Sequence record: PV682554.1
Strand: one strand, 5' to 3'
From: Escherichia phage 92CQ
Length of the DNA stretch: 64,000 bases
Position 1 is the stretch's first letter, and every line of letters starts with the position of its first letter. Of this stretch, positions 48,204 to 48,381 are shown piece after piece. The position numbers and the translations under genes are program-made. The notes beneath the pieces were generated by a model that had not been told where the DNA came from, did not search any database, and saw only the letters and a program-made list of their open reading frames with translations.

Positions 48204-48381
48204 ATCATTAGCAGCCTATGCCGGACACATAGGCGGCTAATAATAACGCAACTACACACCCCACATAATAACCATCACCGATAGTTATTATTTGTGCTTA
48301 TGTAGCTTGCAACAATTGCAAGCGCAACAATATACAAGGTATATTGTATCCCTTACATTGTTGCGGTGCGTTATTATTAGC
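48204..48381. other. nested inverted-repeat element (structured RNA or DNA cruciform candidate)
   Basis: 13-bp IR TTAGCAGCCTATG/CATAGGCGGCTAA; perfect 15-bp IR GCTAATAATAACGCA/TGCGTTATTATTAGC 116 bp apart, enclosing GCTTGCAA-CAA-TTGCAAGC and CGCAACAAT...ATTGTTGCG. Confidence 0.5.

Follow-up and report, generated by a model that had tools for sequence, protein, structure and literature searches.

A conserved multi-arm fold selected on the minus strand near the terminal repeat of phi92-like coliphages

The stretch of DNA analysed here (the window) comprises 64,000 nucleotides of Escherichia phage 92CQ (record PV682554.1), placed by sequence matches in the genus Justusliebigvirus, the phi92-like coliphages of the Stephanstirmvirinae. 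A gene-free spacer, of similar length in the relatives that were examined, contains the element under study (Table 1). On its left side the spacer follows a homologue of phi92 gp248 and begins with a strong intrinsic terminator, and on its right side it is bounded by the first gene of the next block, all flanking genes being encoded on the plus strand. A synteny search via the upstream gene (T4 gp30.8-like) was unhelpful, this gene being too widespread (1048 records). The 1.8-kb region around the element is 92-98% identical to that of more than 45 Justusliebigvirus Escherichia phages, EC_OE_11 being the best match (98.2%). As the preliminary description of this DNA had stated, no open reading frame covers the element: those of at least 40 aa are absent over it, and the overlapping ones are just 20-35 aa long, in mixed frames. 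Several GenBank records (PP925843, PQ529420, PQ438393, PP925826 and others) carry 9-11 annotated "hypothetical proteins" across the 1.7-kb spacer, where the actual reading frames measure only 20-57 aa; these annotations are probably spurious.

Table 1. Features of the spacer and of the element (positions are those of the window unless stated otherwise; a caret marks a cut)
Feature	Position	Strand	Description
Gene-free spacer	47526-49237		1.7 kb
Intrinsic terminator	47541-47568	+	closes the upstream + strand gene block; terminator scan; annotated terminator in PATM and phAPEC8
AT-rich, G-poor (+) tract	47750-48200		about 450 bp; downstream of the element in the minus-strand sense; 19-25% GC, skew -0.36 to -0.68
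Repeats in the tract	47858, 48004, 48108; 48143-48169		ATCTAACCT at the first three; AATCATTTCATAC twice in the last
ATTAGC motif	48207-48212, 48376-48381; inverted GCTAAT 48236-48241	+	
Whole element	48205-48384	-	three-way junction and 3' hairpin; read 5' to 3' from 48384 to 48205; covariance model R1
P1, 5' arm	48367-48381	-	pairs with 48236-48250, perfect 15 bp
Arm A, 5' strand	48350-48364	-	minus-strand GCAACAAUGUAAGGG; pairs with 48309-48324
Arm A, apical extension	48327-48347	-	ATACAA/TTGTAT stem as first drawn; insertion of about 20 nt, Justusliebigvirus rows only
Arm A, 3' strand	48309-48324	-	from GCTTGCAA-CAA-TTGCAAGC: left half, "loop", part of right half
Arm B	48251-48307	-	P2 (48251-48257 x 48300-48306) capped by H2 (48265-48276 x 48280-48291, 3-nt loop)
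P1, 3' arm	48236-48250	-	outer GCTAA can alternatively extend hairpin H1
H1, 3' hairpin	48214-48234	-	stem of 7-8 bp; loop 48221-48227, CCGGACA on +, UGUCCGG on -
Palindrome GCTTGCAA-N3-TTGCAAGC	48305-48323		arms identical in 22-23 sequences, one A>G change in one sequence
First hairpin, as first drawn	48208-48220, loop 48221-48227, 48228-48240	+ as read	TTAGCAGCCTATG, loop CCGGACA, CATAGGCGGCTAA
Perfect 15-bp inverted repeat, as first drawn	48236-48250 / 48367-48381		GCTAATAATAACGCA / TGCGTTATTATTAGC, 116 nt apart
H3, as first drawn	48305-48323		GCTTGCAA-CAA-TTGCAAGC, both arms present
H4, as first drawn	48323-48331 / 48357-48365		CGCAACAAT / ATTGTTGCG; inner ATACAA/TTGTAT 48332-48337 / 48344-48349
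Direct repeat	48436-48475		GTGAACAATGACA twice
GC-rich hairpin	48487-48507		GCGCCACC-TTCC-AGGGGGCGC
DTR, single copy in the assembly	48646-48988		343 bp; 96.5% identity to the annotated phi92 DTR
DTR cut sites, by homology	48645/48646; 48988/48989		GTTG^AGCC; GCGTTA^AGCAC
Fur-box-like sites	37254-37321, 47773-47788, 47831-47846, 48722-48737, 48917-48932		AATGATAATCATTNTC; two inside the DTR, two left of the element
Vequintavirinae element	5755-5990 of the extracted Klebsiella phage Seu621 locus		closing stem GCGACACAATAACACGAGGG/CCCTCGTGTTATTGTGTCGC

The preliminary description had suggested that the element might sit at an origin or a packaging site, and the spacer does contain a genome end. 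In the phi92 reference record, direct terminal repeats (DTR) of 343 bp are annotated at the left and right ends, and since the phi92 repeat aligns within the spacer, the assembly has one DTR copy, as a concatemer junction would. This repeat begins 265 bp to the right of the element, which is on the unique right-end side; the distance is not fixed, ranging from about 210 bp (phAPEC8) to about 336 bp (Citrobacter phage Tr1). A DTR of 342 bp was determined with PhageTerm for phage BME3 (PMC12210895), and DTRs are stated to be general in the subfamily (PMC12695924). That unit genomes are bounded by short DTRs is assigned here solely by homology, from the phi92 annotation, the BME3 result and the ends of deposited records: the record of the Phapecoctavirus Ro121lw ends in GAATGTTG and starts with AGCAAGTTCTC, and that of Schickermooser ends in TTCGCGTTA, all of which match the cut boundaries of the window, the cut sites being thus conserved between genera. 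Both DTR boundaries share the sequence GTT(G/A)^AGCAC(C)T(T)CTC, which is conserved in Justusliebigvirus, Phapecoctavirus and Tr1 and coincides exactly with the start or end of two GenBank records; from its sequence, it is a candidate terminase cleavage signal.

Other features accompany the DTR. A GC-rich hairpin lies between the element and the repeat, with a hairpin at a comparable place in Phapecoctavirus, and a direct repeat is found just upstream of it. Palindromes resembling Fur boxes give 12 matches at 7 sites in the window, against 0.32 expected, and similar boxes occur in the phAPEC8, Tr1 and Mydovirus spacers. The site at 48719-48737 agrees at 17 of 19 positions with the E. coli Fur box consensus. 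Judged by sequence, these boxes could be operators through which host Fur controls early promoters, or they could serve a phage regulator.

All four inverted-repeat features that had been drawn on the plus strand are present at the positions given for them. The first hairpin is real and has a 7-nt loop; its arms, which had been described as 13 bp of complementarity, match at 12 of 13 positions with one A.G mismatch, and an inverted-repeat search extends it to 18 nt at 89%. Its right arm does overlap the left arm of the perfect 15-bp repeat. Folding of 48196-48390 with RNA parameters gave -67.5 kcal/mol (z -6.8) for the plus strand and -82.2 kcal/mol (z -7.8) for the minus strand, and DNA parameters gave -44.5 (z -8.1) and -49.0 kcal/mol (z -8.9), respectively; in each of the four cases, none of 200 dinucleotide shuffles matched the native energy. 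A scan of 46500-50500 against Rfam 15 (cmscan, both strands, E <= 5) returned nothing over 48204-48384, with six matches elsewhere that were far below gathering scores, and ARAGORN found no tRNA or tmRNA gene in the whole window.

A distant blastn search located the element in 132 phage records, and in Phapecoctavirus and the Tr1-like phages just the element can be aligned, at about 75-82% identity. For comparative analysis we used 23 distinct sequences from the Justusliebigvirus, Phapecoctavirus and Tr1/Klebsiella-phage lineages; these include the matches of pattern scans of IMG/VR and metagenomes, which gave 4 and 7 loci, respectively, all from the same phage group. A scan of a genome collection for P1 plus the junction pattern gave four bacterial matches, none of which was matched by the covariance model described below, and they were attributed to chance. 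Some records have unexpected host labels. MG065639, MG065645, MG065656 and MG065689 are labelled "Campylobacter phage" (host C. jejuni), yet show 94% identity over 100% of the coliphage spacer; spacer matches also include OP562383, labelled Acinetobacter, and records labelled Pseudomonas, and a copy of the element with 77% identity is present in Serratia phage KKP_3264. Mislabelling or contamination probably accounts for some of these hosts.

In a MAFFT alignment of the plus strand, 96.4% of the cells of five helices are paired, and 12 pairs show compensatory changes; none of 500 shuffles matched this, and sliding the 3' partner by 1-3 columns lowered pairing to 20-43%. We then built a covariance model, R1, on the fold of the minus strand. 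It finds exactly one strong full-length copy per phage locus (154-181 bits; 157.5 bits and E 3e-37 in the window, where it is the only such copy), and of the 1258 cells of the resulting alignment 98.2% are paired, compensatory changes being found at 15 pairs. Over these analyses, slid controls reached 20-54% against 96-99% paired. The proposal that this is a structured element thus holds: pairing is conserved in the relatives and is under selection.

The strand on which the pairing is preserved is not the one first proposed. The non-canonical cells of the five shared helices on the plus strand (35 in the MAFFT alignment) are all A.C or C.A, with no G.U; in the reverse-complement alignment the same cells become G.U, and 99.3% are paired. 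On the minus strand the covariance-model alignment contains 116 G.U or U.G cells and no A.C or C.A. Because every departure from Watson-Crick pairing is a G.U pair when the minus strand is read and an A.C mismatch when the plus strand is read, the fold is selected on the minus strand. Folding energies agree in direction: minimum free energies per lineage run from -73 to -82 kcal/mol for the minus strand and from -55 to -68 for the plus strand, the minus strand being lower by 12-24 kcal/mol in 11 of 11 lineages (-81.6 against -64.5 for the element of the window), and the minus-strand architecture is identical in all 11. Without guidance, RNAalifold recovered the minus-strand structure at -66.5 kcal/mol; on the plus strand (-50.5) it recovered only part of the model (H1, P1, H2 and H3), and the failures were all A.C. 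We therefore propose, with a probability of about 0.95, that the locus encodes a conserved single-stranded fold of about 165-180 nt selected on the minus strand only.

In this fold the 15-bp stem P1 closes off arms A and B, and the hairpin H1, which has a conserved loop, comes next on the 3' side. P1 is 100% Watson-Crick in the covariance-model alignment; three of its inner pairs show compensatory changes (AU/CG, CG/GC and GC/CG/AU), and its outer 10 bp are invariant. Arm A is a 16-bp helix between the right arm of the last hairpin first drawn and the left half and "loop" of the GCTTGCAA hairpin, and it is present in the minus-strand optimum of every lineage folded. Its covarying column pairs are 25-75 (UA 15/CG 8), 26-74 (AU/UA/GU/GC), 22-78 (CG 13/UG 10) and 27-73, in RNAalifold on the covariance-model alignment. 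Since the "loop" triplet of H3 covaries with the distal strand (alignment columns 25-27) in seven different combinations, arm A is real and not a modelling artefact. The two separate hairpins GCTTGCAA/TTGCAAGC and CGCAACAAT/ATTGTTGCG are accordingly replaced by one long arm. H4 is real in the genus of the window and degenerate in the Phapecoctavirus, phiWec186-type and Tr1 rows, and its right arm is the strand that covaries with the H3 "loop".

In arm B, six of the nine pairs of H2 show compensatory changes, and P2 is maintained solely via minus-strand G.U (AU/UG to GU/CG). Three of the seven pairs of H1 are compensatory, and its loop is invariant except for CGGGAAA in the Klebsiella-phage lineages. 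The loops of H2 and H3 have 3 nt and the apex of arm A has 3-9 nt. The covarying fold uses both arms of the GCTTGCAA-N3-TTGCAAGC palindrome in another way and does not account for their invariance, which suggests that the palindrome either forms an alternative conformer or is bound by a dimeric protein.

What kind of molecule adopts the fold is less certain. At roughly even odds, we consider it to be a new non-coding RNA of the terminal control region, transcribed leftwards and antisense to the flanking genes. The pairing statistics are RNA-like: 9% of the cells are G.U, some of them in all or nearly all lineages, and single pairs pass through AU, GU and GC states. Against RNA, the Rfam scan gave no family for the element, 3-nt hairpin loops predominate, as is common for DNA palindromes, and the analogous element of the Vequintavirinae described below is nearly all Watson-Crick. 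Energy parameters were not decisive, since the same minus-strand fold is also the optimum with DNA parameters in 8 of 11 lineages. Sigma-70 promoter matches numbered 13 against 12.2 expected, and none was conserved in position across the window and 17 loci; -10-like hexamers, perfect or 5/6 (TATAAT, TACAAT, TAGAAT, GATAAT), abut P1 upstream on the minus strand in four lineages, while the genus of the window has none at P1. A transcription start inside the outer part of P1 would retain every covarying P1 pair. Between 47400 and 49400 the only intrinsic terminator is that at the left end of the spacer; no terminator follows H1, and the hairpins of the element lack a U tract on either strand.

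The likeliest role of such an RNA would be a cis-acting one, at a replication origin close to the right end of the genome, although over all readings this priming role is less likely than not; a trans-acting regulatory RNA is an equally open option. In the minus-strand sense the element would be a structured 5' domain, followed by a transcript of about 450 nt that is G-rich relative to C, over the AT-rich tract, whose plus strand is nearly devoid of G. A persistent RNA-DNA hybrid over this tract would serve as primer for a leading strand made leftwards, an initiator would bind to the repeated ATTAGC motifs, and the alternative pairings (outer P1 versus extended H1, palindrome versus arm A) may form a folding switch. 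In all 14 lineages checked, the DNA left of the element has low GC content and a plus-strand skew of -0.16 to -0.51, the right side being at about 0 to +0.3. The change of sign is local, over a few hundred bp: at the scale of the window GC skew tracks gene orientation, shows no switch at 48 kb and is uninformative as an origin indicator. Alternatively, the tract could be a Rho-utilisation site for plus-strand read-through transcripts rather than an unwinding or R-loop region. ATTAGC occurs in 2-7 same-orientation copies within 300 bp on either side of the element (about 760 bp) across lineages, against 0.22 per kb in the whole window, a 12- to 40-fold enrichment; its recurrent flanking form is (A/T)ATTAGCA, and the genus of the window retains only the copies inside the element.

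A structured transcript, a G-skewed AT-rich tract, iterons and a gene-free spacer form the layout of transcript-primed origins such as those of ColE1, T4 (oriF/oriG) and T7. In ColE1 RNA II, T4 oriF/oriG and the T7 primary origin, as proposed for the present locus, a transcript that is structured or promoter-proximal leads into an AT-rich unwinding region, over which the RNA has more G than C, and R-loop origins likewise occupy large non-coding regions with repeated motifs. Unlike them, the element shows no conserved promoter in our searches and is located at a genome terminus. The phi29 pRNA provides another comparison: it is a structured RNA of about 120-174 nt, built on a three-way-junction core and encoded near a genome end, and it keeps a covarying structure as its sequence changes. 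Our element has a predicted three-way junction and a terminal location, and would be comparable if it is RNA. The inter-loop complementarity needed for ring formation is not conserved; complementary apical loops (ACC/GGU) in arm A and H2 occur in no more than some of the Justusliebigvirus rows, and not in Phapecoctavirus or Tr1-like phages. Moreover, in contrast to the protein-primed phi29-like phages, the hosts of the element are large myoviruses with terminase-driven DTR packaging.

The same strand preference would also be expected of single-stranded DNA, and the main alternative, which we hold less likely than RNA, is that the minus strand snaps back during replication to duplicate the DTR, like the "hairpin" intermediate of T7. 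A leftward fork, or a nick followed by unwinding, would expose the nascent or displaced minus strand, which would adopt a T- or Y-shaped fold; its paired 3' end at P1 would prime rightward synthesis through the spacer segment of about 265 bp and the DTR, so that each genome would gain its own DTR copy before the terminase cut at GTTG^AGC. The ATTAGC sites and H1, whose loop is conserved, would then be a signal for stalling, nicking or protein binding. The location fits, as the element is on the unique side of the DTR, 210-336 bp to its left, in all lineages, and so does the polarity, only a fold-back of the minus strand, the selected one, being extendable toward the DTR. The fully Watson-Crick P1, the short loops of H2, H3 and the arm A apex, the DNA-parameter optimum in most lineages, the absence of a conserved promoter and of a terminator after H1 from our searches, and the almost purely Watson-Crick Vequintavirinae analogue are also in favour of DNA. 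On the other side, the 9% of G.T cells, some of them kept for the whole divergence, would be unusual for a DNA helix under selection; H1 lies 3' of P1, so that a priming end requires a cut or a stall that is hypothetical; and the distance to the DTR varies.

There is a precedent in T7: Chung, Nardone & Hinkle (1990, J Mol Biol 216:939; cited in PMC4281155 and PMC11482910) reported that its concatemers give rise to a hairpin end which includes the terminal repeat. T7 also packages concatemers with short direct terminal repeats that need duplication, it too has an inverted-repeat structure in unique sequence immediately to the left of its repeat, and the polarity of our element is the one that would permit fold-back synthesis through the repeat. 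The element differs from the T7 structure in that the two have no sequence relation and that it forms a 165-180-nt three-way junction plus hairpin with G.U/G.T pairs instead of a simple palindrome. Parvovirus and AAV inverted terminal repeats are similar in their palindromes within a palindrome, three-way junction and closing stem able to present a priming 3' end, and in the repeated short protein-binding motifs nearby, putative in our case. Unlike the AAV repeats, the element lies about 610-780 bp inside the mature right end, not at a physical end, and the genome is double-stranded; we know of no Rep or HUH nickase in these phages.

A double-stranded DNA site acting symmetrically, either as a cruciform, which had been one of the first suggestions, or as inverted protein sites (the pac site of a small terminase, or origin iterons), is improbable. 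The invariant GCTTGCAA-N3-TTGCAAGC and the outer 10 bp of P1 do resemble sequence-specific protein sites, the element is flanked by ATTAGC repeats, and terminase cut sites are nearby. A cruciform, however, requires both strands to be paired, and the strands are asymmetric: the shared helices are paired at 96.4% on the plus strand versus 99.3% on the minus strand, every transition intermediate pairs as G.T in the minus strand and mismatches as A.C in the plus strand (12 pair positions versus 0), and arm A, which forms only with minus-strand G.U/G.T, has plus-strand A.C mismatches conserved in nearly all sequences. Protein sites alone do not explain why H1, H2 and arm A, in which the sequence varies freely from lineage to lineage, carry compensatory changes. 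Least probable of all is a plus-strand RNA as first drawn, for instance a 3' stabiliser or processing signal of read-through from the upstream operon: the flanking genes are all on that strand, which also folds well (z -6.8), and in Phapecoctavirus one plus-strand T.G pair occurs in the last of the hairpins first drawn, but 35 (MAFFT) or 116 (covariance model) cells would be A.C, the five shared helices contain no G.U, the consensus energy is 16 kcal/mol worse, and the strong terminator lies 640 nt upstream.

An analogous element is found in the Vequintavirinae (Mydovirus Seu621, Seunavirus PVP-SE1, GAP31, 4MG and others; 65 records), in what is the same long non-coding spacer, downstream of a homologous small-gene block. 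It comprises a closing stem of 20-21 bp around three arms and an adjacent hairpin, folds with z -8.4/-9.5, and shows 8 compensatory pairs among 8 sequences, with no clear strand preference. R1 detected no homology in the syntenic spacer of Seu621 (best E 0.55). The shared design suggests a functional class rather than an oddity of one lineage. We put forward as a tentative proposal that rV5/phi92-type myoviruses possess an undescribed class of strand-specific multi-arm terminal elements, with at least two sequence-unrelated families (Stephanstirmvirinae and Vequintavirinae), located a few hundred bp from the DTR and acting in genome-end metabolism, as a snap-back DNA primer duplicating the repeat or as an RNA component or primer of end replication or packaging.

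To our knowledge, the mechanism by which DTRs are regenerated from concatemers has been an open problem ever since T7 was studied in 1990, and it has never been examined in large myoviruses. The element described here probably acts in replicating or processing the genome end, and it provides a precise, mutable target for which compensatory mutants and the active strand are predicted, in a phage group widely used in therapy cocktails (phi92, phAPEC8, BASEL isolates). Acting as RNA, it would represent a structured RNA family that is new, well supported and missing from Rfam; acting as DNA, it would be a rare strand-specific DNA fold under purifying selection in a double-stranded DNA phage, and should snap-back prove true, the 35-year-old hairpin model of T7 would be extended to large myoviruses.
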